Shown here: positions 2,131-58,808 of the stretch, in pieces
Layout: the number at the start of each line of letters is the position of its first letter
Position numbering within the stretch: position 1 is the first letter of the stretch
DNA from: Hydrolagus affinis
Lineage: Eukaryota
Length of the DNA stretch: 64,000 bases
Direction: 5' to 3'
Assembly: GCA_012026655.1 (NCBI GenBank)
Contig: JAAILG010000785.1
Span: 1-64,000, forward strand
The notes under the pieces: model-generated
The model's input: only the letters and a program-made list of their open reading frames with translations
Databases searched by the model: none
Told to the model about the DNA's origin: nothing
Position numbers and translations under genes: made by a program

Positions 2131-2920
2131 ATGGCTCAGTCGCTGCAGTTGGAGATTGTGAACTTTGGGAACACGGTGCTGGAATGCCTGAATGAGCAGA
2201 GGCAGCAGGGCCTGTACTGTGATGTCTCAGTGCTGGTGAAGGGGCAGACATTCAAAGCCCACCGCAGCGTCCTGGCCGCCAACAGCGGATATTTCCGTGA
2301 GCTCTTCACCGGAAACAACCGGAATGTCTTTGAGCTGCCGGGCGCAGTGCATCCACAGAGCTTCCAGAACATTTTGACCTTTTGCTACACGGGGCGTCTC
2401 TGCATGACGGCGGGCGAGCAGTTTGTGCTGATGTACACGGCAGGTTTCCTGCAAATACAGCGCATCATGGAGAAGGGGACGGAGCTGCTATCGAAGGTCA
2501 GCTCCCCGCGTTGCGACTCCCAGGGGCTGATCGCCGAGGAACCCCCCTCCGAGCCTCATAGCCCTTCCCCTGCTGGCAGTCAGGGCTCATCCCTCCCACT
2601 CCCTCTCCTCTCTCGCATCAAAGTGGAGCTCGGCGACAGGGAGCCGGGGGCGGCTGGCAAACGGGGGTCGGAGGTCGGGTACCCCGGGGGGAAGCTGGCC
2701 CGTCTGGGGGGCTTTGAGGGTCCGTGCGGTATCGGTGTCGCTGTTTCCCACCAACTCCCCGACTTGAGCAGCCCTGGTGCTGGCAGCCTGCAGCACAGTG
2801 ACAGCCCCTTCTCTTACCAGAATGAGGAGGAGGAGGAAGAGGAAGGTCTGGAGGACATGAGCGAGGAGCAGTACGTGCAGATGTGCAGCATGTACAACTC
2901 TGCGAACGGGACACACGCAG
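2131..2920 (+). CDS. NACC: NACC-family (BTB/POZ + BEN) protein, coding exon 1: BTB domain, IKVE SUMO-type motif, acidic patch
   Basis: [50 protein letters not shown] matches the NACC1/2 N-terminus; donor CAG|GTAATC at 2921; 790 nt, phase 1. Confidence 0.96.
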
Positions 2921-3269
2921 GTAATCGTGTCTGCACTCTCTCCCTGCCCGCATACACTCTCTGCCCGCGCACACACTCTCTCCCTGCCTACGCGCACGCT
3001 CTCTCTGTGTACACATCCACTCACGTTCCCGCAATTCCAGGAATTCTCCCAGGATCCGAGTAAGGAAGTTGCCAACCTCCTCTCAGTGTGCTGAGCAGCT
3101 GATGTCAGCCCCAATCTGGGTCAAGTCTGGAATTGAGCCTATGTGTGGTGTGTGGGCGGGAGGGGGGTGGTGGGTGCAGGGATAGAGAGTGAGTTAATGT
3201 GTGCATGTGGGAGGGGGCGGGTTCAGTTTCCCCCTGGCTGTGCCGCTGACCCTGTGCTCTCTCTCTCAG

Positions 3270-3443
3270 TACCCCATGAGCGGCTGGAGGCTGTGGCTGA
3301 CCACACCGAGAGCCGGGCTCGGCTGCGGATCCGCCACGACCTGGCCATGCTGCCGGCCGACCTCATCAACCAGATTGGACACCGGTGTCACCACAGGCTG
3401 TACGTGGAGGGTGATCCAGCCGAGAAACTGGAGCTGGTGGCGG
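3270..3443 (+). CDS. NACC: NACC coding exon 2
   Basis: Acceptor CTCTCTCAG, donor G|GTGAGT; 174 nt; encodes [39 protein letters not shown]. Confidence 0.96.
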
Positions 3444-3642
3444 GTGAGTGAGTGTCTAACCCATGCTGACACTGACCTGAGAGTGTGGATGGACAGTGTA
3501 GGGGGAAGCTTCGCTATGTTTCTAACCCATGCACTAGGGAAGGATTCCATCTGCAATACTAACGCCTCTAACACTATTCAGTGTAAACATTGACAGAGCA
3601 GTAACCTCGGTGTGACTGGTGCTGACCTGGGTGTCTCTATAG

Positions 3643-3748
3643 GTACAGCTGTGTACATCTCCCGCACCCAGTTGATGAATTGCCACATCTGTGCTGGGAC
3701 ACGACACAAGGTTCTTCTCCGCAGGCTCCTGGCAGCGTTTTTTGACCG
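3643..3748 (+). CDS. NACC: NACC coding exon 3 (BEN domain)
   Basis: Acceptor TCTCTATAG, donor CG|GTGAGT; 106 nt; [36 protein letters not shown]. Confidence 0.96.
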
Positions 3749-3850
3749 GTGAGTAACCATAGCAACATCTCCAGGCAAGACTATTATGGTTTCATTCCCA
3801 GTGTGTCAACAGACTGAAACTAAACCATCATCGAAGGATTTTTTAAGCAA

Positions 3851-4001
3851 GGTATCTGAGACACGCAGAAACCCCATCACCGTGATTAGCCAGGAGTCTG
3901 ACACACACAGAAACCCGTCACCGTGATCAGCTGGTGTGTGACCTACACAGAAACATATCACCGATCAGCTGGGTATCTGACACATGCGGAAACTAATCAC
4001 C
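3851..4001. repeat. ~40-bp minisatellite, 4 imperfect copies
   Basis: Unit approx GGTRTCTGACACAYRCRGAAACCCATCACCGTGATCAGCT repeated in tandem in a NACC intron. Confidence 0.85.
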
Positions 4002-4775
4002 ACCCACAGATAAAATCTCCCCGTGTTTATATCTGTCAAAGCACTTAGCACTGTGCCTCTGGGGTGGGTGGCAGTTGTGGGGTGGGTGGGGGTGGTGGGG
4101 GGAAGATGACTGAAGGTGCATCCAAAGAGATGGGCCGTGAAGTAGGCGGGGAGCAAATTGAAGAGAATGGCGTTCCACAGTAGGATGGTTCTGGAGGGAC
4201 CCACTCTGTTACTTCCTGCTGCAGTTTCCAGTGAGGATCATGTTAGCTGTTAGGCTTTTGTTTGCAAAAATAACAGGATCTGAATGGGAAGAGTCTCAAT
4301 GACTGATCTGCCTCTCCCAAGTCCTGCCAATATGTCAGGATGGCTGGTAGGTATTGGGTTATATGATTACAATAAATCCATAGAAACTACACCTGAGCAA
4401 GCCAAACATTTCATGGTATCTGTGCTGGTGCTCACTCCCTCACTGGAGTTCTCATCCAATTCCCTGCTCTCTCCCCATCGTGTCACTGGAGCTCTCCAAT
4501 CCTAAAGTCCAGTCCCCTTGAAATTGTTGCCTGCTGTAAATTACTAAACTTTCAGTAAAAATTACTTACTTAGTTACTCTTGGCCTGAGACTAAATTAAA
4601 AAAAAAAAACTTGTGGCCTCAGGGTCAAAATGCACAGACTGGAACATGCACAGTGACATGAGCTGGAGTGTACTGCTGCCACCTTCCGGTATTAATAAGC
4701 ATCTCAATAATGAAAGTCCAATTGAACTGACCTGTAATGTGCTGCTTCATTCTGTTGTTGCTCCTGATCCAATAG

Positions 4776-4873
4776 GAACACTCTGGCGAACAGCTGTGGG
4801 ACAGGAATACGCTCCTCCCTTTGTGATCCCAGCCGCAAACCTCTGGATAGTCGCATTCTCAACGCCATCAAAG
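4776..4873 (+). CDS. NACC: NACC coding exon 4 (BEN domain)
   Basis: Acceptor CCAATAG, donor AAG|GTAAAC; 98 nt; [32 protein letters not shown]. Confidence 0.96.
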
Positions 4874-4958
4874 GTAAACGCGCTTTACACAGCACAGTGC
4901 AATAATAATTACTGTATAATTCCTCCCATTTGCTTCTTCGTTGAGTCCTGTAGCAGAA

Positions 4959-5940
4959 TCGTCACCTCGCTCTCCTCGCAAACAAGAGGAAATTGGGTTT
5001 AATTCCCTTACTCTCGACCGTTTCATCCTCCCACACAGCCTCTTCTCTCAGCTTAATTTTCGTGGACCTGCCCTTTCCTGTTTTGTATTTTACCTCTCCT
5101 ACCCATCAGCCCATGACCGAGGCCCTCCTGATTGGCTCGCACCAGCACCTCCATACCTCAGGTATTGGCAGCATCAACCTCCCACCTCACCAAACCAGTC
5201 AGGAACCGGGTGTCTTGTTTGATCCTCAACTATCTTCTCTCCCTCATATCCATGCGATGATCCACTCTGCCTTCCCTTATTACCTCCACAACATTGCCCG
5301 ACTCCACCACTACCTCACCCCTCAGTCCGCTGAAACGTTCATTCATGCCTTCATTACTCCCAGGATCAAGTAAGCCAATGCCCGCTTGTCGGGCTCCCCA
5401 GTTCCTCCCTCCATGGGCTGCAGATCATCCAGAACTCTGCAGTCCAAGTCCTCTCCTGCACCGGACTCCACTACCCTATCACCCCCATTCTCGCCCGACT
5501 CCACTGGCTTCCCATCACTCAGAGGATTCAATTCAAGATCCTGGTCCTCACCTTCAAAGCCCTACATGGCCTTGCCCCACCCTACCTCTATGACCGCCTA
5601 ATCCCTACCAACCTGTCCACTCCCTTGGTTCATTGGGCTCCAGCCTGCTCCACGTCCACCAACCCACCGCCACATCCTCAGCGGACGAGCCTTCAGCCAC
5701 TTTGCACCCAACCTGTGGAATTGCATCCCGCAAACCCTCTGCCTCACTCCCTCTCAAGCCTCCTTCAAGTCCCGCTTCAAGACCCTCTTCGATCATGCCA
5801 TCGGTCCTCCCCCTTCTCCCCCCTTGCCTTTACCTTCCCCAATCCCAGCTCGGGTCTGAAACACTGACTGTCCAGTGCCTTGATATGTCCTCCCAATGTG
5901 AAGGGAGCTATATAAATGCAATGTTGTTTTATTATTGTTA
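4959..5940 (+). mobile_element. 5'-truncated, decayed L2-clade LINE (ORF2 C-terminus plus tail)
   Basis: Frameshifted remnants GVLFDPQLSSLPHI..YYLHNIARL..AETFIHAFIT and LHWLP..RIQFKILVLTFKALHGLAP; tail GTGAAGGGAGCTATATAAATGCAA(TGT)n. Confidence 0.9.
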
Positions 5941-6128
5941 GTCCACACTCCTCTGCAAGGATTATTATTATTATTATACTATCAAATATACAATCAGAGG
6001 ATTATTATAATATGAGGGCAACAGGTGAAATGTACCTGAATTGGGGTTGTTAAGAAGAGCCCCTTGTTATTTTCCTCTACTTGACTTTTGACTCTCTCTC
6101 TCTCTCTTGCTCACTCGCTCGCTCCCAG

Positions 6129-6532
6129 TTTACAGCCAGAACTTTGCTCCGAACTTCAAAGAGAGCGAGATGAACGCCATCGCCGCAGACATGTGCACGA
6201 ACGCCCGGCGAGTGGTCCGCAAACACTGGATCCCCAAACTCAAGCTGATGTTGTCGGAGGGAGAGGGGGTCTACCGCTCCGTCATCACTGACCTGGCGGG
6301 TAGCGGCCTGTCTGAGGGGACACCCGGACACCACGACACAGAGCTGCCCGGCCCTGGGCACAGATACGAGCCGGTGAGCCACGACCCCCTTGGCATGGTG
6401 AATATCGGAGCAGGGCACAGATACGATGGCGGAGGCCACGATGGCGGAAGTGGGATGACAGGCAGGTATGACACAGGGATACACGATGCAGGGGAGGAGC
6501 TGGGCAGTGGGGGAATGGAGGCTCCAAACTAA
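6129..6532 (+). CDS. NACC: NACC coding exon 5 (end of BEN domain, Gly/His-rich tail, stop)
   Basis: Acceptor after CT tract ..CTCCCAG; [36 protein letters not shown]; TAA 6530-6532; total CDS 1572 nt = 523 aa. Confidence 0.96.
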
Positions 6533-7100
6533 CCTGAGTTCCAGGAGGTCAAACACCCATGGGTGACGTGGGCAGCCTGCCTCACTCACACCCTGCTTGG
6601 CTGGGATGGGGGAGTTGTAGTTGACGCAAGGTGGAGGAAAGGGGGTGTTGAAGGCGGTTTATTCAGTGGGCTGGAGAACTGCAATGTCATATTGATTAAT
6701 CTTTTGACTGCTGTACGTCTCATCTGGCTTTGGAGGAAATGCTGTTATCAGCACTAACCGAAGTTAAAACCCAAAGAATACAGTTGAGCTGCTATCTTCC
6801 CCCCGACCCCTCTCTCCGCCTGCCCAACTCTCCGTACACACTATCGTCGTAAACGGCCTGTATGTGGAGCTATTGACGTTGATCGTGATCACATTTTAAA
6901 ATATATATATAATCTACAAAGTAAACCAGGCTAGCAAGTTATAAAAGTCCCCATTTAAATGTCAACCCAATCAAAATGGTTTAGCTCCATTCTGGGGAGA
7001 AATGGGAACGCAACACCGTTAGTCTTCTGACACAAAAGCTTTAGAGCTGAGGTTCTGCTGCCTTTGAAGATCAGAAAGACTTGAAGGGAAAAGGAAGCAT

Positions 7101-7415
7101 AGAGTCTCGTAGCCTAAAGGTTAGAAGCCCGAAGGCCCGGGTTCCATTCCTCAGGGGGCGAAACCTTAGGCAAGTTTCCTTTCTCCACAGTTAGTTAATT
7201 GATTGGTGGATGCCTTTCCCCCCACCACACATACACCCCAAAAATTTAGTCATTCAATCCACGACAGTTTGTGGGACACAACACGATAGCTGCTGAACCC
7301 AATTGGCTGCCATGTTATGCCCCAAAATTACAGTCAAATCATTTTACAGTGTATTCTGTGAAGCGCTTTGAGACGTGTCAACATGATAAGCTGCTGTCTC
7401 AAATGCAAGGATTGC
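7101..7415 (+). mobile_element. tRNA-derived SINE (dominant family in window)
   Basis: A/B-box-like head, GAAACCTTAGGCAAGTTTCC, body TTTGTGGGACAC, tail CTGTGAAGCGCTTTGAGAC..AAATGCAAGGATT. Confidence 0.8.
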
Positions 7416-7789
7416 ATTTGAGACAGCGTATGCTTTAAAGTGTGTTTTAAAGTGATAGAGTGTGCTTTAAAATCAGAAAAGCTTGAAGGAAGGTGCAATG
7501 CTAAACCTTCCCTCCCACCTGCAGCAACACCGCTTCTCAGGAATGGGCTGAGGGGAGGGCGACAGGAGAGGAGTTTAAGCCTTGTAGGTAAAGAGACCCA
7601 GGCTTGGTGACACAATGCACCTCTTGAAGTCTGGGAGAGACTGGAACACACAGAGTAGAAATCACAGCACAGAGATAAACAGTAGAGATATGCGTCAATA
7701 TTTTAGGCCTGTCTTTTAATTCGAGGTAGCTGCTCAATTCAATTACTAATCGTCTGTCTATTTTGTTCTTATTAGTTTCCTTTTATTGA

Positions 7790-8170
7790 GAACTACAATT
7801 CACCCACAAAATATACTGTCAATTCACTTTACAGTATATTCACTTTACAGTATATTCTTTACAGTATATATACTTTACAGTATATTCTGTGCTAAGTGCT
7901 TTATCACATCTTTGAGACATTTGAAAGCAAAATATACAAGATATACTGTAATATACTGTAAAGTGGATTGACTGAGGATTTTGAGGGCAAAACACAGCAG
8001 CCGGTTTGTGCACAGCTGTGTCTCACAAACTGATTGACCAATTATATTTGGGAGATTGTTGGCCAGGACACTGCGAGGGAGAAACTCCCTTCCCTTTTCC
8101 AATAGTGCCATGGCATCGTTAACATCCACCTGAACAGGCAGAGGGGACCTCGGTTTAACATCTCATTGGT
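7790..8170. mobile_element. Tail-to-tail SINE fragments with expanded CTTTACAGTATAT repeats
   Basis: Plus-strand SINE 3' part with 4 tandem copies of CTTTACAGTATAT, then a minus-strand Deu-type SINE (AACATCCACCTGAACAGGCAGA). Confidence 0.7.
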
Positions 8171-9267
8171 TATGAGACCAATATGTAAAAGGCCAACTGT
8201 GTTCACTCTGCCTAACAGGGCTGTGTGCCCTGAACAAACCTGAGGAAGATTAGAGTTATTTTATACCGAGGTTTATAACATGGCGGCCTATATTGAATAT
8301 TAAAATCACGCCCTCTACAGTGTCCATTGAAACACACTGAAAGAACTCCCCACGTTCCCCATGCTGAACAGACCCACTGACCTTGGCCAACAGATGGCTT
8401 CAGCTCCGGACACTGAGCAAAAACAGCTTGATGGTGAAATGGGAAGAGGGTGGAGAGGGCGTTTGTGTGTGTGTGTGTGTGTGTGTTTGCTGGAATCATG
8501 AGATCAAATGGACCAAGAACCTTCTTCACCCAAACCTCTTGTGTGATCACTTTCAACCCGTCACAATATAAAACGCTGCAGCTCTCGGTTTTAAATTGTG
8601 TGTTAGGAATGTAGGTAAACTGGATTATTGAGAGGCCCCCAAACTTCTATAATGTACTGGTTTATATACACTTTGTAAAGCTGTTGACTTCTTGACTGTT
8701 AAGTGGTGCTGAAAGACACATCTCTTCCCCTGGTTGCCTGTGTCTGAGAATCCCTCTGTGCATGCCTGTAACATTGTACTGGTTCCCTGTGGCCTTACAA
8801 CAATGACAAAATTACATATATAGAGCGCTTTTCACGTTGGGAGGATGTCCCAAGGCGCTGACACACACACAGACAGACAGATAAACACACACATACAGAT
8901 ACATACAGACAGACACACACACACACACAAAATGGGACGTCTGCTAAATAGCATATTTCAAAGCCAGTCATTGTTGCCATGAGGTGGCCTTGCTCCATGC
9001 GAATAACAAGAACCAATCACACACGTCAACTAATTGTTCCTCTCGCAGCCCAGGTTGGGCGGTTACATGTCCTTTTATACCGTACACCAAACAACAACAA
9101 CAGATTACATTTGTACAGCGCCTTTCACATCAAGAGGACAGGATTAGATTGGGCTCTGATGATCCTGAGGTTACACATATTCTCAGGTCCGCCTTGAAGA
9201 ATTCACACTCGATAAGGCGCTGAGTGAAAAGTGGTCCCTCTGACACTGCACCCATCTAGTGAAATCT

Positions 9268-9343
9268 CTCACCAGCTAAGCGAGTGCTGTGAAGCGACAA
9301 GTCAGTTTGACATCAGTCGTATCAGAGGCTCAGTGTGGGCGAG
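9268..9343 (-). ncRNA. Candidate structured RNA element, copy 1
   Basis: 49/50 identical to copy 2 over 9290-9339 with unrelated wider flanks; folds as an irregular hairpin; family unknown. Confidence 0.4.
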
Positions 9344-9687
9344 CAAAGCATATAAGAATATTTAACACAAAAATAAATTCATGTCAATCCATTAATACAA
9401 CAACAGCAAAAGTTAATAATCCCACTTTTCAACCCATCTAATGTTGTTCCTACACTGAGGACCAGGGATTTGGATAACGACACCATTTGCAGTGACCCCC
9501 CGTCCTGCCCTCCACTTCCCCACCTGTCTCACTCGCCCACTGTGAGAGGCAGCCAACAAGAAGAAAACATGCTGTAAGTACAGGTGCCTTATCTCAGCAC
9601 CAGCGCTGTGTCTGTCAAGAGGGCTTTGGCAGAGAGGTACACTTCCTCCTTAACCACTGGAGAGAGGGGGGATGTGGGGAGAAATCG

Positions 9688-9762
9688 CACCAGCTATTTG
9701 AGTGATATGAAGCGACAAGTCAGTTTGACATCAGTCGTATCAGAGTCTCAGTGTGGGTGAGT
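9688..9762 (-). ncRNA. Candidate structured RNA element, copy 2
   Basis: Core ACUGAUGUCAAACUGACUUGU, 58 nt upstream of a strong acceptor (AG at 9657-9658). Confidence 0.4.
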
Positions 9763-11459
9763 GGCTGTTTAAACCACACACATATTGCCTGTAATATCTC
9801 CAAACACAATCAACTGTAACTAGATACTGTTGTCATGTAAACTTCTCATGTAGAAATGAGACGTTTAGTAATAAACCCCTGAACAAAGAAAGCTGGTTCT
9901 CTTTATTCTTCCACACGCTCAGGTTTCTCTCAAAAACAAATTATTTTCAAGTGTAGTGACTGTATTTGTAGCAAAGGTATTTGACCAAAAGCAGAGGGAC
10001 TGAGGCAGAGAGTTCTATAGTTTTGGGGAGCAGTGTCTGAAAGCACGGTCACTGATGGTGGAGGGCACAAGGGAAAGTCAGGAGACCAGGCCTGTGGGCA
10101 GGATAGAAACTGGGTTGGAGGGAGAGGTGTGAGCGAAGTTGTTGGCAGCAATGTGGATAGAAGGAAACTGCACTTAAAGTAGATAATGTGTGTGCGGATT
10201 GCATCAAATTTCCCCCCCTCTTAAAATCCCTGTTGCTGATTTTCTGCACTGCTGAACACAGGTAATCTCCGGTGGGGGAACACAAAAGCTCAATTATCCC
10301 AAATCTGAATACAGTAGTAAAAGTTTATTTCAGAACTAATGGGTAACAATTTGTGGTATTAAAAATTCTGTGGAGCAGAATAAGACATAAAGACAATACA
10401 ATATAAAATTTCACAACACTGAGGTCAAAGCCCCCCCATCGTCACAAGACCAAGAGATCGAGAAAGAGAAAACAGCGATCCAAGCCACATTGCCACCCAG
10501 GTTAATGTTACATCACAACGGAACAAGGCAAGTACAGACAGGATAAAGACAAATTGTTAGAGAACTTCAGAAAAAGTACAGTAATAGGAATGTCAGAATA
10601 TCCTAATATGTGGAACCTGCAATAATCCCATCCCAAAATATAGTAGACTGTAATCCTGATGCGATAAAAATAATTGTGCATTTCTCGAAGGATGGATTGC
10701 CATCATTTCAGATTTTTGGGGGATCAGATTTGTTCAACTGAAACCGTTTCCAATTTCTTGATGTTTTTTTAAAAAAAATTGTAACGTTAAAGGCACATCT
10801 CTCCCCTTCCTTCCACCAGGTCTTCTCACAGTACAACATGCTGTGATTCCCCAATGCTAAAAAGCACCCAATTATGTATATAATTCACAGTCAAACTGGA
10901 ACAACTTTTGATAAAAGCAGTGAGCATTGAAAAAACCCCGAGGGAAAGCATTGGTGACTAGTAACATAATAAGGACCCCTTTATTCAGGTCAACAACAAA
11001 ATTGCATTTTTTTGGTTGCATTTTTAGACCTTTGATGTTTGGAAAACTTTAAAAAAACAAGAGTCTCTTATTTGAGGTGTAATACTGATCACCAGCCATT
11101 GATAACTGATAAGAAACACTGGATATTAGCCTACAACAGAAAGGTTCACTGGTGTCATTGTTTGGAAAGGAGAGGCTGTGACATACAGTCTCTTATTGTG
11201 TGATGGTTCAGGACACAGGCAGAAACTCTTTGAATTGTTTTGAGAAGGTCAGAAAATAAGAAAACCACCGTAAGAGCAGCACACACACAAAATCTTATAT
11301 AGACACACACTTGTGATAATGGGAAAAGCATCTCAGGAGAACATGTGCAGTACACAACTCCAACCTTTGTATTGGAAAATCATTGATCTGTCATAACTCA
11401 CATGACTCGAGTCTGAGAGCCGACCAATAGGTCAGCACATAGATCCCAGACGACAATAG

Positions 11460-11710
11460 TGAGGATCCCAGAGAAGTGTACCACACGCTAAATGGGATTG
11501 AGAAAGTAAACACAATCAGACTCGGGATAGGACAACAGGGCACAGATTCAGGGTGCATGAATTTCAAGGACAGACACCAGGTGCTTCTTTACTCAGAGGC
11601 TAATTAACACTTGGTGCTGGTTGAGACCAGGACATTGGACTTATTTAAGAAACAGCTTAATGCTGCAGTTTGAAGACAGTATGTTGGGAATTCTAAAGGA
11701 TGAGATAAGT
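11460..11710 (+). mobile_element. CR1 LINE 3' fragment
   Basis: Remnants of CR1 ORF2 end (EVY..LNGIEKV, TTGHRF, FFTQRLINTW, FKKQL). Confidence 0.65.
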
Positions 11711-11852
11711 GGGTTGAAGACACACCCAGATCTCTTTGGTGACAGAAATGATTGAAAGTGTCAAAGCTGGGGAGCTGGGGATTTGGCAATGCTCTCAGGC
11801 ATGTAACACTTTACTGTGTGGGGGAAAAAAGTGGGAAAGAAATACAATATAG

Positions 11853-11925
11853 GTGTATATCAGTAAGTTCACAAGTCAGGAGCTTGACATCAGTACTATA
11901 CCAAAGATATACTGTCCTCATACTC
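11853..11925 (-). ncRNA. Candidate structured RNA element, copy 3
   Basis: Core ACUGAUGUCAAGCUCCUGACUUGU; stem UUUGGUAU/AUGUCAAG; strong acceptor (AG at 11814-11815) 57 nt downstream. Confidence 0.4.
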
Positions 11926-12574
11926 GAGTCATTAACAGAGCTGAGACTTTGACAAATTAGTGAAATTGGTTTGTGGGGTCTTAGTCACAGCAATGTAGAA
12001 AGACATTTTGGGACTGACTGCATCTTTAACTCCTTCAAAAATGGAAGTATTAAAAAAAATTTAATCGAATGTTAGTGTGAGGTGATCATATCTTTAGAGA
12101 ATAATTTTCATTAAACTGGTGCAATTAATATTTTCTACAAAATCAAAACTGCACAAGTAGCTTTGGTAGCGACCTCCCTATTCACTCAAAGCACCAATGA
12201 CTCTCCCCTTGCCTCCCGCTTGCCTGGAGGTGCTGACCATGGGGACACTATTCCAAGAGTTTCTGATACCTTACCCTGACTCCATGTCTGTTCCTACTGA
12301 ACAGACATGGAGTGTTACTGGACAGTGGAGAACATTGCACCAGGTCCCAACCTCTCCACACGCGAGCAAGTAACCTGAACTGTATTCAGGCTGGTTGCTA
12401 AGCCGATCTCTAGCCGATGAGATGTTGAGGCATGTTGAAAGCTGCCTGTGCACCCTGGCGAACGTCACAAAAAATCAGTGCCCGTTAGGGAAGTGAGAAG
12501 CTGAGAGTACACTACTAATGGAGACATGTGCTGACTGTTGGTCAATCAAAACGGGGTAGGGTGTTGGGGTGAAA

Positions 12575-12642
12575 TGGGCAATGTTAGTAAGCTCACAAGT
12601 CAGGAACTTGGCATCAGTACTACACCAAGGCAAATCATTCCC
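12575..12642 (-). ncRNA. Candidate structured RNA element, copy 4
   Basis: 39/43 identical to copy 3; stem CUUGGUGU/AUGCCAAG; followed by TACTAAC and an acceptor (AG at 12535-12536). Confidence 0.4.
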
Positions 12643-15600
12643 AGGTTAGATTGACATTCCAGTTGATAGTTTACCTGAATCACATTGTATTAATGTTTTA
12701 CAAGAGAGAAAGGAAGAATTTGTGCATTTCATATGTTCCCTGTGTTTAAAATGAAAGCGAGTGGTTTATAAAACCAAAAAGCGATAGGGTGATGGTGTGG
12801 ACACAAATACAACTCCAGCTAGTATCAGCGTAACAATGCAGGTAATAAGCCACCATTTACAAACTGTTCCATCAGAGAGGTGAAGAGAAGGCATCCTTCT
12901 CAAATATCAACACTTAAACCACAGAAATCTACGCATCACCATCTACATATACAGCATTATTAGCACAATGGGCATCAGCCACAGGACACACCATAGACAA
13001 CTACTGTACAGAACCACAAAGAAGCATGGCAAGCTTGGCTTTACATCATGGAATCGCAAGCAACTAGTCAGCAATAGTGGGGAGAGCAGGGAAGAGGGCA
13101 CCAACTTACACTAATCACATTCCATATTCACTTTGTTCAATATACAGGGTTTGTAAGCAATAACACTAATAACAGTACTCTCCAAAAAAGGCTACATGTT
13201 CAATATGGAAGGTACTTTGTTCCAACAAAAGGACCAAACTGGGCCTTGGTACCTATTAGTCACCTAAAGGCTATAAGATATCCTGTCTGAGAAACATCCC
13301 AACATTCAAGATGATGTGAGACAAACAGTGATTGGCAACAAGCTGAAACAGAACCTGCTAAGAAACCCCATGATTCATTTTAGGCTGATTGTCTCTTTTT
13401 TTATTACACAAGAGAAAATGAGAGTGGGGAAGTGAGCTGCAGATGTGTATTGTCACTGCATGGCTAATCAGTGTTGATTTACCTCCTGATTACACTAGCT
13501 CTGGAGCCAGAATTTGATCCTTCACCGCTGATACTTACTGCTCAAGGTGAAAGCGAGTGCAACTAAATTAACTCAGTATTTAAATCTTTCATGATAAAGC
13601 AGTTTTTTCACATTAGTGAACAAAGGTGAAATTGCAGGTATCCTGTCTAGCATTTTAACAAACACCCCCACTCTAGCAGATTCTGTACAGATTTCATCAG
13701 ATTACTGCCTACTCTCACTTGTACGATACACATACTCTGTGAATGGAAAATGAATCACGGTTACAAAAAAACCTTTCTGCAATGGGTAGAAAATGTTAAT
13801 GAAATCCCTTGTGAAATCCTGTTGTTCTTTGCAGATTCACATGGATGTTGCTTTAATTCGTCTTTGAGGCATTTAAAACAAAATGTGTGTGGCCTTTGGG
13901 TGTGGCCAGTGTGTAAACATTAAGAGATCTGAACTCTCAGATTTATTGCAATATCTGTGTATGTGTGGGAGCGAGCGAGAGAGAGAATGACTGAATGACT
14001 GATCATCTCCAGAGGCTAAACAATCAGAATTAACTAGGGTCAGAAACAAATGAGCAACTCATCTACTGGCAATATTACAATCTGCATCTCTCATCTGTGG
14101 TCAGCAAGCATCAGCCACAGGCACAAGCACATGTGCTGCCATTGCAAAATAAATAAATTTAAATAATCCTTGTTTTGGATGCAGCCTCTTATGTCGAAAC
14201 TCTCAAAGAACTTCACAGAATGAATGACTTTGAAGCGCTCTGTGCTATGTACAGACAAAACAAAACGGCAGCTAATTGGAACCAGCAACACCACACTCAC
14301 ATAGCAAAGAGGTGAAGGGCTGAGCACTGAATTTATTTGCAGGAGAAATATCAGGTGAACTCTTCATCCCAAACGTGTATCATTAAAATCCACCTGAACT
14401 ATGGAACAGGTAGAGGACAGAAGAACAAAAAGCCCCAGAGTGTGGAACAAACTGTTTTGGAAATTTGGGTAAACGAACTAAGAGGGTCAGCGGTAAGCTA
14501 ACTACTGTTGGTAAGTAGGCCTAGTGGTAAGCTAAACTACTACTGTTGCCAGAGGGAGGGAGTATGGTGAGTGTGAGTTTGCTGACCTTTCAGCTGCTGT
14601 GGAAATGAAGCATAAAAAAACCGACCGACTATTTGCAAGACTGCCTTCAGGTGCTCCAGGAGACTGGGAATCCGAAATGGACTGGAGCTTTGCAACTTAG
14701 TCATTTTCTAATAAGCAAAAGAAAAAGATTATATCCAAGTAAACTAAGAAAGCGATATTTATATCAGAATACAACGTCGATTTGAACTCAGAATTCAAGC
14801 AGTAAACCTGTGCAATAATGTATGTGTCCTGTGGTTATTGGCAGAGTGTTTCAGTCACTAGTTCTGAGGTTTACTCTGGACACTTGCCCAGGAAATGTTT
14901 GTGTGAAACTGACAGACATGGTAGTTTGATTCAATCGTGTTGCTTTTTTTTCCTATATTTAATAAACTTTGCCACAAGACTCCAGAGAAATGAGGTAGGC
15001 GGTTACTTTCATTCCATCTTGAGTGTGGTCTCTTATCTCTTCATCAGCAAGCTACAATACCTCAGCCCAGGTGAACACACACTCTACTCTCTCTATGCTT
15101 TTCACCTAATGACAACATCACAGGCAGGAGTATTATACTGTCCAAACACTCCAGTGTTAGGTACGGAGTAAACCTCCTTCCTCTACCTTGGTAGACCAGT
15201 CAGAACCCACTAAAGCATATAATGCTATATAATGCTCTAGTTAGATACAGTATAAAGCTCCCTCTATCTCAATAGTGCACCTTAACCCCTACTTGAGAAA
15301 ACTCCTGCCATTTGTGTCAGCGTCATTTCCTGCACCGGCCATCATTGCTTTGCTAACGTAATAAACTGAATGGTATATGGGTTGGGTGAGCCTGAATTCT
15401 GCCATGGACAAGAGCAGTACAGTACATTTAGAACCCACAGGTTACTCAGATATGAACTAGATATTTTACACCACTCTTGTCATCTGACCATCCCCTGCTC
15501 TGGGAATCAAGCCCTACAAGTTTTAAACAAATCTACAAATATGAGTTACAAAACAAGACCCTGAGCACACGCTGATCCTGTGGGGCAGAATGCTGGCAGA

Positions 15601-17016
15601 CATAACACTGTCTGATCTCAGTGCCGCGTTTGTACATCTGGATGATATATCTCAAGTGTTAACTCGTAGAAAAAGGCTTTAGAAAAACCATGAGAATTGG
15701 TGCAGCACAGGTACAGGCACCTGGTTTCTATGACCCTGGAAATAGCAATAGCACTGGTGGTGGAACAAGAATTTGAGTCTGAAAAATCACAACAGTGACA
15801 AGTAACACTTAATCCTACTTCAAACAAACACCACGCAGGGAAAACTGAGTGGTTTGATGTTTAGTATTTGATGATCCTGAAGTGAAGTTCACAGCAGATG
15901 ATAAACAGGTGGAAGTTGTCTCCAGGTGGCTCGCCCCAGTCTCCCCATCAGTGAGAGTAAGCAGTGGCGCTAAAGATGTGATAGTTGCTATCAGGAGCAA
16001 CAAGACCAACGCTCCTTGCAAACCATTTGTTGCGTTCAGTTTTCGGCAGCATGGAAGCCAATGCACCTCCAGGAAGCCAGTCAGTCAGTCAGTCACACAG
16101 CACATCACAGTTATAAAAAAAACCTCACTCGATTCCCTAACAGCGAGATTCCCAGGCTCCCACATGCTTCTGAAACCGAGAAACTGAGCCAGTGTCTTGG
16201 ACCGACAGGATCAAAGGAGCTTCGGTCTGTGCACCTTTACTTGCCCTTTACTTGCAGATTAGTTAATGATTATCACTCAACTGTGATTCACTGTATGCAA
16301 GTCTCATGAAACCTCAATCAAGAAAATGGACTGCACAGCTGCTGGGCAGTAACGGAGATCAGATGCAGAATTTACTGAGAGAAAGTAATCTTTAAATCTC
16401 ATTGCTGAGCAGTTCTGGGCAAATATTGTACACGGCAGCTATTAATCCCACAGGGGAAATGCAGAGTGGAGCCCAAGCAGAGGTAGATCACCCAAACATC
16501 ACACTGAGTGCTGCTGTCCTGCTCTCAGCAAAGCAGGCAGATTATTGGCACCACTGAGAGGTATGCAGGATGTTCTCATTTTCTCATATTGAGGCAGGCA
16601 AAGTGGAATACTCAAAGGCAGCTGTAGGGACTATTATGCCTGTATTCTTAGATCCAATTTGGATTTCCAATAACAAACGAGTTGTTGATTGAACTCCCTG
16701 AAGCAGTTGGCTTGACTGTGCAGTTAAAGGTGATCGAGTTACCTTCACTTTGCCGGCTGTAATGTCTTTCCGAATGGCTAGGACAGTGTGGTTTGTTTCC
16801 CATGATACAGCACTACTGTTGCCGAGGACACACGAGAGCTCCCAGTGTAGCCCCGGGTCATCGCACTGCCACCACTCATCACACAGGCTGCCCTGCAACG
16901 CCATCCACTTAACCCTTCGAGGACAAACCACTCAAGCAATGGCCACTTTACTGAAAAATTCACACATCTCATGAGATGTCTGCTGTTGGTTGAAGCAAAG
17001 TCCTGGCTGGAGACAT

Positions 17017-17094
17017 TATTACATTATTGTTGATTGAACTCCCTGAAGCAGTTGGCTTGACTGTGCAGTTAAAGGTGATCGAGTATTACATTAT
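17017..17094 (+). repeat. 56-bp exact copy of 16683-16738 flanked by 11-bp direct repeats
   Basis: TATTACATTAT at 17017-17027 and 17084-17094 bracket TGTTGATTGAACT..GTGATCGAG. Confidence 0.92.
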
Positions 17095-17796
17095 AAGAGC
17101 ACTGAATCTAAAGCCAAGGTCCGTATCTCAGCTCATAGTGCTAACAAATCCAATTTACACTTATTCTGTGAAGCGCTTTGAGACGTCTAGAAGACTTGAA
17201 AAGCGTTTTATCAAATGTAATTATTATTATTTTTCCATATCAATAAGCAGATACTAGATAATTTTGAAATTATTATTATTATTTCAATAATTATTGAAAT
17301 TTGTTTGGATTAAATGCTAAGCACATTAGTGCGTCGTCAATTCAAAGCCATTGTAAATTGATGTTTCATTTTGGGGGTGGGGGGGATGTACAAGAGCTAA
17401 GTTAAGGTTCTGAGATTTACATTCTGTTTGTTGAGAATGGGAAAATCATACTGAGTGCTCCTGCTAAGTTAGATAAATTTACGGGCAGAAAATATATTTA
17501 AATTCTTTTAAATTTCTTTCTCCAATTTCTTTCTTTGCCACATCTTGCGCCTTTCCAGCCCAGGTTGGTACGGGCAGGCAGTTCAGTGCTAACCATCACA
17601 TTTACATGGTTCTCTACCTAGTCCTGTCATCGGAATATTTCTCTGTAGAGGCAGTCAGTGGGGACGGGCTGGGGTTTCAGGTTTACCTTCCACAGCTCTG
17701 CGGGAAGGTCAGATTTGGGGACTCTGCCTCAGTCGTTATGAATTCACATAACCTACCAATATTCACCGTCAAGTCTCCCACACGAGCAACAAATGC

Positions 17797-17818
17797 TTTA
17801 TTGATTTCAGTGTTTATT
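17797..17818 (-). terminator. Candidate XPR1 polyadenylation signals
   Basis: Two minus-strand AATAAA (17813-17818, 17797-17802) followed by GU-rich TTTGTTGCTCGTGTG, ~3.1 kb after the stop; another AATAAA at 18909-18914. Confidence 0.35.
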
Positions 17819-20800
17819 ATAGAGTTCTTTCGTATCATATTTAATATCCGTACGGTTGTGGATGCATTGAGGAACGTGAAAGAGCTGGCAGGAGGGGGAA
17901 AGAGCAAGTTTAACGTTAAACAAACTAATTCACGTGGCCCTGCCCACTTTCATTGCATAGAGCAGTACAGTTCTCGAAGGGTTAAATGGCTCCCACTTGC
18001 AAAAGAACAAGGAGGGAAGGAAATCTGTCTCCAGTCTCATCCCTAAAGGGTTCATACAACAGAACACTTCTGGGACAGAATGCAAGGAGCAAGCTTCACA
18101 ATTGCTGAGGCTAGATCCCAGCCCACCTCAGTGTTATGGGAAACTGAGTGGGTGCACACCTCACAGTGCCCACAGAATTAACAAAGTAGGATCTCCTCCT
18201 TTAACAACTACAGAGGAACCCAGTCACATGGTTAGAATTAACCTTGCAAGTATGGTCATCTCAACACTGAATGCACAGACTGAGTAATAGTCAGAGTTAA
18301 ACCACATTCCAATATGTTCAAAATTTTCAGTGTAAACTAATCATTCTGTGTCACCAATGCACCATTAAATTCAGAGCCTCATCCCCAGGTCACTCACTAC
18401 ATGAAAAAAACGCTCCCTGTAAATATATGGCACCTGAGCTGCAGAATATTGGCAATGCGTTTTATCTTGGTTTCATCTTCCCTCACACCCTGGCATTCAG
18501 GCTGTTAAAACTGGACTGCTATGTGGCTCGCTAAGTCTAACACTTTGTGGTGCTGAGTTAATTCTGAGCTGACTGTGAGTGTGCATTGTGCTCTGGTGTT
18601 GGTGCCAGTACAATGCATTACACATAATCCCCCTCAATACAGTGTTTATGTGAAATGCACCACCTCAGGGCACAGGTTACACCACAGGATCAGGAACCCA
18701 ACTAAGAGTCAGTGACTCCTCCCCGACACAGTGAATTCAGAAGATCAAGTTCATCTGTAAGGAGGAAGTGATATTACAATCTTTCACTTCCTCTTATTCT
18801 CAGTTCTGGTTAGTTTGCTAGTGGGCTAAAATTTCAATCCAAACCCCCGTCCCTCTCTGTTTTTGTGTGCGTCACAATTTGACTGAATCACATCTGTTTT
18901 GCGTACACTTTATTAACAAAAAGCATCAGGAATGTGAAATTCAGAGTTGACGGTACAAAATAAGCTTGTGCTGTGGCAGGTAGCAAGCCGAGGGTCGGTG
19001 CTAGCGAGGAGAATGGTAGCAACTTGGAGATATTTTGTCTTGGGTTTCTTTGATATTATATTCCCTACGAATGATTTATTCACCAAAAACTTTGATCATA
19101 TCGATGTTCTGCATTTGCACATTACAGATGCTCCTGTCATCCAATCCTGCCAAGTAAAATACACTTGTTTGGAAGGCCTGCAGGGCAGATCTCACGCAGA
19201 TTTGGGATCTGAGAATAGTTGGTAACCCATAACCCAACCATTCAAAATCCTTCCCCAGCCCCAAAGTCTCTAATACAGAGCAAGGTTTGGAGGTCGATGC
19301 CTGGATCTTGTCTTACCTTGATGTCTTCTTTATCTCAATGCTGAGGCACCAGGACTTTGGCCTTTCTCTTACAGTGGAGCCTACTTACGGTCATGCCAAC
19401 AGAAAGGTGTTAGGAGGAGCTTTCCCAGTGTTCCAAATCCAACCATATTAAACTGCAGTATTAAATAAAATCCTGTCTAGGATCAAAGTGGTGCACGAAC
19501 GTCAAAGCCATTAAATCACTGAACGTTCCCAACCCATCATTAATTTCAACAAGTGCTCAGCTCACTACTTCTGTAATTGGAATCTGACTCCACACTCGCA
19601 CTAAATTGTACATTGGGTATTTGGGAAGGGCTACTGAATAAATACAGGCAAGTAGATACTCCCTTTTTAAAGAAAAAAATGCAGTAACAAAATCTCTCTC
19701 TCTGTGTGGATGTTAACGTGGCAATGTAAGACTGATCTTAAGATGGCTCCACTGTCATATCAGGCGAGGTGCTTCCCAATCGTCCACCGGCAATCTTCCA
19801 CAAACTTCCACACAAGCTTCTGAAAGAAGCCCACTCCCATCTCCTGGCACAGACTGCTCTGAAAGCCTTCAGTCACCCACCCAGGTCACATTCCAGCTGC
19901 TATGGCCTGCTAATCCAGCAATGAATCAGCACTGGTTCCTATCAACTGGCACAAAGAATGGGAAATAAAATCAGCAGCCAGTCTTCCTGCAACAAATCCA
20001 ATGGGAATAGTGGGAATGGGTTTCGCCAAGATTATTATGTTCAATTTCCCTGCGAGATTTTCTACATTGTACAAACATCTGGAAATGGACCAGGATATGT
20101 AAGAACCGCAAGCATTGTATTTTGATGCATGGGGAAATAATGTAATTTGCTACATGCCTCCCTTACTAGATTCAGGTCAGAAAAATCTCTGACTAAATCT
20201 CCTGTAAAGTGGGAAACAGAGAAGTTATTTGTTGCAGCTGAAATGTCACTTGGGTGCTGTCTGGCTGCCATTTCAGGTGCCAGTTTCATTATAAGGAGAG
20301 TCCTAACTGTGGAAACTAGAACCTTTGGAGCTCCCTGCTCCCTGTTAAACAGAAGCCAACTGCTAAACCCAAACAAAAAATAATCCTCTAACATTAACAC
20401 GAAAAGATCGCAACATTGCACTGGAGATACGTTTTGCTTCATAAATAATATGGACAATTCCAATTGGAACAGAACAAATGCATATCAAAATGAAAAAAAA
20501 ACTTCACGTAGGAAGTATGAATAAGTGCACTTTCCCTGCAAGTGCCAACAGGGTCAGGAGCTGGTCAGATACGTGAGTGAACCAGTTTAGCCCAGCTTAA
20601 ACTGGCTCCAGCTTATTCTGAGCCTGAGAGAGAGAGAGAGAGCGCGCGAGAAAACAAAGTATTGTCCAGCTCAAAGTCTGTTCCATTTGATTTGATCCGT
20701 ACTGAGAAGATAAGAGAGATAGATGGATATTCCTGTAGTTGCAAATAGTCTTCAAAACTGGTTTGACTCGGTTTAAATTAATATCAGAAACAAAAAGAAA

Positions 20801-20905
20801 AAGAAAAGTGGAATTGAGTCTGTGTCCGGGCAGAGGAGCCAAGTGGCGTTCAGTGCCCGGTAAAACTGGAACGTGTCAATGACAGCGAGATGTCCGTGTC
20901 ACCTC

Positions 20906-20966
20906 TCATGTGAACGCCTCATCATCTGTGTCTTCGATCAACACATTTGTGTCCCTGGGTTTCAAT
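20906..20966 (-). CDS. XPR1: XPR1 last coding exon (15)
   Basis: Acceptor TTTCTGCCCCTCAG; [19 protein letters not shown]-stop, matching human [18 protein letters not shown]. Confidence 0.95.
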
Positions 20967-22768: not shown

Positions 22769-22987
22769 ATTGGGCCGAGAGGTCTTCTCAGGGACATGCT
22801 ATAAGCGCGCTTCCACGCTTTCTGTTTCTGGCGGTTCCGGACTCCGTCCTCCTGATCCATCATTTGCTCCAAGAGTGTCTGGTCATCAGCGTTGAGCGGT
22901 GCCACAGAGATATCCCGGACAGCACGGAATTCACCACAGTTGTTCAGGTGCTCGTTCTCTAGACGGAAAAAATTCCACACAAAGCGC
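22769..22987 (-). CDS. XPR1: XPR1 exon 14
   Basis: [54 protein letters not shown]; 219 nt, phase 2-2; donor AT|GTACGT. Confidence 0.96.
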
Positions 22988-24116
22988 CTGCGTGAAAGAC
23001 AAAGGCCAAGGGTTAGTGAGCACTTTCGCTCAGTCTGACAATGCTCCTCATTAGCAGCACATTGAGCCAATGTACTTTCCTCTTGTGGGCGATGGGGAGT
23101 ATCAGGTAGGTGACTGAACAACGCAGGAATCAGTAAGTGGCAAGTGAGCTCTGGTCAGCCTCCCGAGTGTAAATCAGGTATCAGATAATGAAGGGAAAAA
23201 TGCACTGTTTCAAAACAGATTCAATGGGATAATTATCACACGTGAAGATAATCACAACTTCAGTCAACTAGGATCACTGTTTTACAATATTAACACCAAC
23301 TCCGTGACCTGGACACAACAGCTGCAATCTCTGTTCCTGCCTTGGATGCGGGTCAAAAGAGGAGACCCAAATGTTGTGCCAAGATGCTGACTAAGACCCT
23401 GATTCAGATTTATAAAAATCAAATAGTTTATGAAACATGCTTAGTGGTCGAGCACTTGCCTCACAAGCACGAGGGCCTGGGTTCAATTCCCGAGCAGGGC
23501 AAAACGTTAGGCAGGTTTTGTTATGCCACATGCCTCTGTTTAGCTGATAGTAGGTAGGATCCTGGTTAAGTCAATTTGTGGATTGCTTTCTAGGGATCTC
23601 AAAGCACTTCAAAGAATTTTCTGTGAAGTGACTTGACTGTATATTTTGTGGAATAAAGGCAGCAGCCAATTGCGCACAGGATTGAGTGACCACATAACTG
23701 ATTTATTTTTATTTATTGTTTTTGAAGGGATTATTACCCTCAGAAAAGTGATTCGCCAATAGACTAACCACTTCCCGCTAGGTAAACAGAGGTGTGTGGA
23801 GTAAGGACATTATTGTTAACGGTCACACTCTGCTGGTGACATGGGTGGGACAGAGATTCTCTCAGATTAGTGTGGGATGTCATGAACATGATTGGAAATG
23901 AGCATGGAGTTTCTGGTATCATGGTCTAGTATCAATGAACACATTTATCAGTTGTTCATTTCAGGAGATTTTGCTGCACAAATACCTACCTATTTGCCTA
24001 CAAAAAATGCAACACTCGACAGTAATTCTTTTTAAAACACCTTGAGATGTTCTGACATGATAAAAATGGAATTACTCTCCCTTGGTTCTGAACTGCTTTG
24101 GTGTAAATGACATTAC

Positions 24117-58289: not shown

Positions 58290-58658
58290 CTAACAAGAAA
58301 TCATGCTGTTTAGAATCCAGATAGACATCGTGGTTGTAATGACAGAAACAAAATTACATTAAAATATAAATATAACCATCAGAATAAAGACAACTGAATC
58401 CAGGGCAACAATAAGTCACAGATGGACCCAGAGTCCCTTAAACTCACTCTTTCCCTCCCCTCTTACAAGATCCGCCTCAAGACCATCCTCTTTGACTGTG
58501 CTGCCGTCCATCTTTAGCCCTCCTCGCCCCACCACCCCCATCCCCTCAACCCAAACTTTGGTCTGTCCAGCACCTTGGAATATCCTCCTGATAAATGTAA
58601 ATTTGTTGCCATTGAGCCAGAGCTTCACACCCCAGATACAAGGCTGTATAGGACTTAC

Positions 58659-58808
58659 TTCGGTCTCAGTGATGAGTTGAGTGATTTTTTTGCAGGTGTA
58701 GAAGGGAGCCACCTCCACATGAGCCACTCTCCAGTCAGCCCCCCGGCTCGTCTCCAGCATCTTATCATGTTTCTTCAGGATCTTTCGGAAACCAGTGAAA
58801 TTCAGATT
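58659..58808 (-). CDS. XPR1: XPR1 exon 5 (end of SPX domain); exons 1-4 outside window
   Basis: [50 protein letters not shown]; 150 nt; the 11 exons sum to 1626 nt in frame. Confidence 0.97.

Follow-up and report, generated by a model that had tools for sequence, protein, structure and literature searches.

Why should four copies of one short sequence each stand at almost the same distance before an AG, three of them with the look of a splice acceptor, in DNA that lies past the coding parts of two genes? The question is raised by a 64,000-nt stretch of the Hydrolagus affinis genome (contig JAAILG010000785.1, positions 1 to 64,000; here the window), in which all four copies are situated on the minus strand between the stop codons of a NACC-like gene (plus strand) and an XPR1-like gene (minus strand) that converge tail to tail. 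The original prediction, made from the letters alone, took them for a new family of intronic RNA or splicing element built on a covarying stem-loop. The motif is real, unexplained and probably not neutral, and on present evidence it is not an intronic RNA family. The reading preferred here, which is held tentatively and at less than even confidence, is that the copies are duplicated and probably selected minus-strand 3' splice-site units, silenced by a hairpin over the branch tract.

Occurrence and Identity of the Four Copies

The motif is present at the four minus-strand places for which it was reported, with exact matches at 9297-9317, 9715-9735, 11871-11894 and 12595-12618, and is set in cores at 9290-9339 (copy 1), 9708-9757 (copy 2), 11857-11906 (copy 3) and 12581-12630 (copy 4). 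The reported identities of 49/50 between copies 1 and 2 and 39/43 between copies 3 and 4 are exact; over the whole core copies 3 and 4 agree at 43/50 positions, the seven differences all being transitions. None of 100 shuffled sequences contained a match, although this null is lenient because the pattern was derived from the four copies themselves. With a sequence-only model of the motif the copies score 51-58 bits and the next match in the window 4.9 bits. Thousands of decaying genomic copies, as a transposon relic would leave, had been named as evidence against the proposal; they were looked for and did not appear, since the motif matches the 1.11-Gb assembly exactly at these four places and nowhere else. 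DNA searches with copies 2 and 3 as queries returned the sister copy alone, and the many dispersed copies of a short interspersed nuclear element (SINE) or miniature inverted-repeat transposable element (MITE) were not seen, in a search that may skip very common words. A looser pattern gave eight genome matches, of which the four extra ones lack similar flanks.

The wider flanks had been described as unrelated, and beyond about 25 nt no likeness rises above shuffles (upstream 150-nt flanks, z=0.6 for both pairs), but copies 1 and 2 remain alike 15-60 nt downstream (z=5.4). A first impression of long flank homology between copies was removed by the shuffle test. A metagenome scan yielded six exact motif matches, four of them opposite open frames of 124-701 aa; these were rejected as relatives and read as chance, since none has the tract-and-AG layout, and the best-scoring one (L014) appears by eye to lie within a decayed retroelement. 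On another contig of the genome (G000:C34576), L031:1490-1530 contains a 22/26 look-alike of copy 3 with unrelated flanks, of which an estimated 0.6 or so would be expected by chance. Upstream of copy 4 a word of about 20 nt with CTGATG recurs on the minus strand at 14100-14125 and about 12975-12995, 1.1 kb apart, and its 14100 copy also fits a loose CTGATG..CTGAC pattern. A literature search by motif string found such an element described in no title or abstract start among the papers listed.

Acceptor-Like Sites at a Fixed Distance

The AGs at 9240, 9657, 11814 and 12535 follow the motif by 57, 58, 57 and 60 nt, as had been reported. The claim that each copy stands before a 3' splice site survives for copies 2-4, where a branch-type tract, pyrimidine tract, AG-free zone and YAG are all present, but fails for copy 1. 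When 905 minus-strand AGs in 6533-20906 were ranked by AG-free run, pyrimidine share and YAG taken jointly, the AGs at 9657 and 11814 were each unbeaten, that at 12535 was equalled or beaten by 9/905 and that at 9240, which is not acceptor-like, by 309/905. Copy 2 is followed by a pyrimidine tract and CAG at 9657-9683 with a pyrimidine share of 0.92 (rank 2/905), copy 3 by a similar arrangement at 11814-11840 (AG-free run 67 nt, pyrimidine share 0.88), and copy 4 by a C-rich tract and CAG at 12535-12561 (AG-free run 55 nt, pyrimidine share 0.64). A good AG lies 57-60 nt downstream of a random position in 0.9% of cases, and any AG in 24%; for copies 2-4, chance falls far short of accounting for the constant spacing to acceptor-like AGs. 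In addition, every copy contains three CURAY (branch-point-type) pentamers, where the regional rate is 0.28 per 50 nt.

The tracts behind copies 3 and 4 cannot be aligned (z=-0.3), yet both are free of AG for 55-67 nt. Composition has thus been kept and sequence has not, which is the pattern of real acceptors. If the tracts are homologous, the core has decayed more slowly than the tract and selection is implied; the alternative is that two top-1% acceptors arose by coincidence. Behind copy 1 lies the tail of an interspersed repeat (9088-9140), and an insertion may have taken away that copy's tract. Features that are strand-asymmetric all point to the minus strand. A donor-like site is found upstream of each acceptor (12277, 11404 and 9535/9525), although donor-like words are frequent (15 in 4.8 kb). 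Directly after the strong donor-like site at 12277 on the minus strand there is a 35-nt imperfect inverted repeat (12279-12313). A coding reading was rejected, the frames that follow the four AGs being short and unrelated.

RNA Evidence at the Copies

RNA was assessed in three stranded poly(A) runs from one sample of a near-identical organism, of which about 27-30% of each run was read. Strand was calibrated internally: reads past the stop are all plus-strand RNA for the NACC-like gene and all minus-strand RNA for the XPR1-like gene. At copy 1 the plus-strand depth per run is 6/16/7 (9282), and around copy 2 it is 4/8/7 (9686) and 3/7/7 (9785), with a minus-strand depth of 0 at both; plus-strand RNA fades at 9862, beside the AATAAA at 9870. 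Between about 10.4 and 21 kb no bin lacks minus-strand RNA, which is gone at 10232, beside the AATAAA at 10324. This strand-specific coverage places copies 1 and 2 antisense in the NACC-like 3' untranslated region (UTR; 6533-9890, plus strand, its end near AATAAA 9870-9875 being set by the read drop-off), and copies 3 and 4 sense in a long XPR1-like 3' UTR or read-through transcript (10305-20905, minus strand, ending near AATAAA 10324-10329). The latter is tied to the XPR1-like gene by coverage in every bin and not by long reads.

No splice joint was listed in 11500-13300 among 327 RNA reads, at a threshold of three reads in a run and a depth of about 10 at each AG (11814 and 12535). At copies 3 and 4 the depth on the would-be intron side is as high as on the exon side, and reads cross both AGs unspliced; at 12536 a 2-nt insertion in 8/11 reads keeps the CAG, and these reads too continue through the AG. 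The read depth is compatible with minor splicing at copies 3 and 4, in at most about one molecule in four, and spliced forms prone to decay would be depleted.

Predicted Folding

The letters of the stem that the original prediction described as covarying are able to pair in the way proposed. The predicted probability of these pairs, however, is 0.00 for copies 1-3 and no more than 0.08-0.09 for copy 4, and the A-U, G-U, G-C series offered as covariation requires, by eye, a 2-nt shift that a MAFFT alignment does not make. An RNAalifold consensus gives a different, weak hairpin of seven pairs (-3.95 kcal/mol), to which covariation contributes a mere -0.25. Pairing in the proposed stem is nevertheless kept, by wobble, through all four changes that fall within it between copies 3 and 4 and in relatives; one of them is at 11900, where both related organisms have C in place of U and U-G becomes C-G.

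Two helices besides the proposed stem are predicted with more confidence, each in part of the set. An inner GUCA/UGAC stem, which belongs to the consensus hairpin, has a probability of 0.96-0.99 in copies 1-3 and of 0 in copy 4. An outer helix, in which a 5' arm (12618-12625 in copy 4) pairs with the branch-type tract (TACTAAC, 12583-12589), reaches 0.68-0.98 in copy 4 when flanks of 30-100 nt are included, the two As of the tract being about half unpaired. In copy 3 the branch-type tract (TACTGAT, 11859-11865) is likewise predicted to be paired, in another register, with an unpaired probability of <=0.25 in 30-100-nt contexts. One G-C to A-U double change between copies 4 and 3 was found by eye in the outer helix and speaks for it.

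A Possible Silenced Splice-Site Unit

The observations are drawn together, tentatively, in the following model. The unit would consist of a conserved core of 45-50 nt with three branch-point-type pentamers, followed by a pyrimidine tract and a CAG 57-60 nt on, and units of this kind would be placed within the long 3' UTR of the XPR1-like gene and a little beyond its end. The predicted hairpin would hide the branch tract and leave the acceptor mostly off; in copy 4 the 5' arm may pair with TACTAAC so that one A is left out, an arrangement that we take to resemble pairing with U2 snRNA. The core would be under selection, and in some tissue or state the block might be lifted, giving rise to 3' UTR introns, and hence decay, or to alternative last exons. 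A duplicate in decay, its acceptor already lost, is what copy 1 would represent. That a structured splicing-control element stays the best reading is the part of the original prediction that stands, while its other part, a cluster of intron-encoded small RNAs, is not supported. Two results that had been named beforehand as refuting appeared in the one RNA sample: minus-strand transcription was missing at copies 1 and 2, and use of the acceptors of copies 3 and 4 went undetected. A bolder version is doubtful: a self-silencing cassette with a U2-like strand in each unit that pairs with the unit's own branch point, four tandem units of which would gate splicing, decay or last-exon choice in the 3' UTR of a second, fish-type phosphate exporter, or, less likely, a new class of 40-nt intronic kink-turn RNAs set free in an unsampled tissue.

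Several facts weigh against the preferred model. The main fact that it leaves unexplained is that the best-preserved pair, copies 1 and 2, lies outside any minus-strand RNA seen and beyond the distal poly(A) signal. In the one sample, at about ten reads per AG, no splicing at the acceptors of copies 3 and 4 was seen, so that use of the acceptors is putative. No fold is common to all copies: the inner stem is missing in copy 4, and the outer register has a probability of <=0.01 in copy 3. Flanks of 200 nt drop the outer helix of copy 4 to 0.08 and partly open the tract of copy 3, and the change at 11900 in both relatives disrupts one outer-helix pair. Fold z-scores of whole elements are unremarkable (-2.1 to +0.6). 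In a DNA relative diverged by about 2%, 37 substitutions were counted over some 1,750 nt; the 40 bases that are invariant between copies 3 and 4 have 0, where only 0.85 changes are expected; the comparison therefore has no power for selection across species. Finally, the long XPR1-like UTR contains a perfect 58-nt non-tandem doublet (16682-16739 and 17027-17084, 345 nt apart), which means that local copying occurs in it.

Should the unit be conserved and switchable, it would be a compact, repeated RNA switch acting on an XPR1-type phosphate exporter through its 3' UTR, and if the model is true a natural transcript would conceal its own branch point through mimicry of U2 pairing. If the copies are neutral, local duplication can fake the layout of a small nucleolar RNA (snoRNA) host, which is a caution for sequence-only scans.

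Alternative Explanations

A 3' UTR element bound by proteins of the STAR or poly(C)-binding type, or by the 3p arm of miR-125b, with the AG incidental, is unlikely. In its favour, copies 3 and 4 sit in exonic, polyadenylated minus-strand RNA. STAR proteins prefer ACURAY-type words and poly(C)-binding proteins C-rich tracts. The fixed distance to CAG is left unexplained by any such binding. As for a microRNA (miRNA), the second invariant block, read by eye, complements nucleotides 1-9 of rodent miR-125b-2-3p without a mismatch, the arm being taken as printed in PMC4142392 and PMC8499475, but the rodent-type arm was not found in the assembly. The genome has two mir-125b hairpins, L036:1053-1120 (plus strand) and L037:875-942 (minus strand), besides three other mir-10-family hairpins (L032, L033 and L034), and several positions of the L037 3p arm do not agree with the rodent arm in print. 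This arm pairs with copies 3 and 4 at -23.3 and -24.1 kcal/mol, values equalled by 2/5,000 shuffled arms each; with hundreds of miRNA arms available, however, 2/5,000 is near chance. Moreover, when the window is tiled, copies 3 and 4 come no higher than 4th and 11th, two of the seed pairs are G-U, and copies 1 and 2, which are antisense in RNA, pair weakly (568/5,000). A search with the lin-4 family gave no match, the control being likewise silent. The copies themselves were rejected as miRNA precursors, their fold z-scores of -2.1 to +0.6 comparing with about -6 for the genome's own mir-125b hairpins.

Neutral, nested local duplications without function, an old one of 25-85 nt followed by ones of 83 nt and 50 nt, repair-mediated and sharing a core by chance, are also improbable, to much the same degree. 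The mechanism is documented, and in the accessible part of that study such duplicates are mostly found within 5 kb (824/1,136 in human; PMC2671141); the 58-nt doublet provides a live example in the same XPR1-like UTR. The unrelated flanks, the paralogous XPR1 and NACC downstream regions without the motif and the splicing that went unseen all suit it, and scanning many windows favours picking such coincidences. Against it, three events on one core would be required, and two or three tracts that cannot be aligned would each need to rank among the top 1% of acceptors while keeping the same spacing. The differences between copies 3 and 4 are in addition 7/7 transitions, against 23/37 in the relative.

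A cluster of very short intron-encoded RNAs, of kink-turn or single-hairpin H/ACA-like type, whose host transcript is made in an unsampled tissue, is quite unlikely. Some features do suggest this main idea of the original prediction: there is a single element per acceptor, each with a donor-like site upstream (12277, 11404 and 9535/9525), and small RNAs are lost from poly(A) libraries. UGAUG and CUGA are invariant, and two CUGA (D box) words occur in every copy, the second ending 62-65 nt before the AG. A box C/D kink-turn has tandem G-A pairs, a 3-nt bulge and a canonical stem. By eye, G-A, A-G, U-U and G-C can be drawn in all four copies; the canonical stem would have 6/7 pairs in copies 1 and 2 and two pairs in copies 3 and 4, and the middle bulge base is C. 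In kink-turns this base is usually a purine. The invariant UGAUG word itself has two mismatches to the C box (RUGAUGA). That no canonical upstream C box exists was confirmed for copies 1, 2 and 4, which have none with one mismatch or fewer within 150 nt; copy 3 has one word with a single mismatch, which would give an RNA of about 46 nt. Nor did Rfam recognize the copies, as had been anticipated: no family matched them at E<=1 over 1-30000, or when 9200-12750 was searched at E<=10. In a comparison for guides of at least 10 nt that covered a partial 18S sequence of 1,378 nt (from 2/4 loci of this genome), the longest complementary run is 6-8 nt; 28S was not found in the genome search.

For box H/ACA RNAs, which have two hairpins with an H box and an ACA 14-16 nt from the pocket, only a single small hairpin was seen by eye. 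The ACA/AUA lies 14 nt from the upper stem in copies 3 and 4, which is H/ACA-like geometry, but 10 nt in copies 1 and 2; the upper stem has only 4 bp, and the partial 18S sequence holds no target for the pocket. In the one RNA sample the spliced intron on the host strand that marks C/D snoRNAs was not seen, minus-strand RNA is lacking at copies 1 and 2, and no use of the acceptors of copies 3 and 4 was detected. Against the donor-like sites stands the frequency of such words (15 in 4.8 kb). About 12 nt separate the D-like box from the branch-type tract, compared with the 40-50 nt to the branch point that are reported for a few C/D RNAs, most expressed snoRNAs lying farther from it and not closer (PMC10234308).

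A putative DNA-level cluster of transcription-factor sites between the convergent genes, with half sites that we take to be bZIP or nuclear-receptor-like, would suit a quasi-palindromic core kept regardless of the transcribed strand, but is very improbable given a spacer that varies by 3 nt, a single orientation and a link to pyrimidine tract and CAG that it does not explain.

Neighbouring Genes

The plus-strand gene (2134-6532) has a BTB domain exon at 2134-3060 and its last coding exon ends with the stop at 6532; its name, NACC-like, is our assumption from the BTB match and a general resemblance. The 3' part of the XPR1-like gene (20906-58868, minus strand) comprises an SPX-type exon (about 58419-58868), an EXS-type exon (about 22777-22959) and a last exon at 20906-20966, the SPX-type and EXS-type Pfam matches being single-exon matches under the curated cut-off. 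It apparently has a 3' UTR isoform of about 10.6 kb and one of about 2 kb, depth falling about tenfold below the AATAAA at 18909, and about 400 nt lie between the end of its long 3' UTR and that of the NACC-like UTR, which converges on it. A literature search on the XPR1 UTR found nothing relevant by title among the papers listed. Each of the two genes has one paralogue in the Hydrolagus affinis assembly, and the two XPR1-type genes (20906-58868 on the minus strand, and G000:C6834) share 63% identity over the exon searched. The motif is absent from the 10,000 bases downstream of the paralogous XPR1 and the 5,700 bases downstream of the paralogous NACC, where the sequence-only model gives at best 6.8 bits. 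A partial tRNA-like match at 23439-23493 (plus strand), under the Rfam cut-off, is probably the head of a tRNA-derived SINE.

Relation to Known Systems

Intronic box C/D snoRNA clusters, as described in the accessible part of PMC10234308, share with the copies the UGAUG and CUGA words and an arrangement in which each acceptor-like site has a single element, always at much the same distance. The copies differ from them in having no canonical C box, a length of 39-46 nt at most, no guide that was found, a position that is not intronic in the tested RNA and a D-like box that stands as near as about 12 nt to the branch tract. A target site for miR-125b-2-3p, to the extent that its sources were available, is matched by the second block, which complements nucleotides 1-9, and by copies 3 and 4, which also pair with nucleotides 13-17; the genome's own arms, however, form G-U pairs in the seed, most of the first block is left unexplained and copies 1 and 2 are antisense. 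Repair-mediated doublets, going by the part of PMC2671141 at hand, are similarly short, non-tandem copies with unrelated flanks, here 418 and 724 nt apart, whereas the present set has four copies with one core, three of them with an acceptor-like tail at the same distance. Lastly, from RNA structures in which a branch point or 3' splice site is sequestered the present unit differs in that it is fourfold, lies in 3' UTR sequence and has only putative acceptor use; the likeness to them is that a branch-type tract stands in a predicted stem before a pyrimidine tract and AG, and that the acceptor is apparently off.

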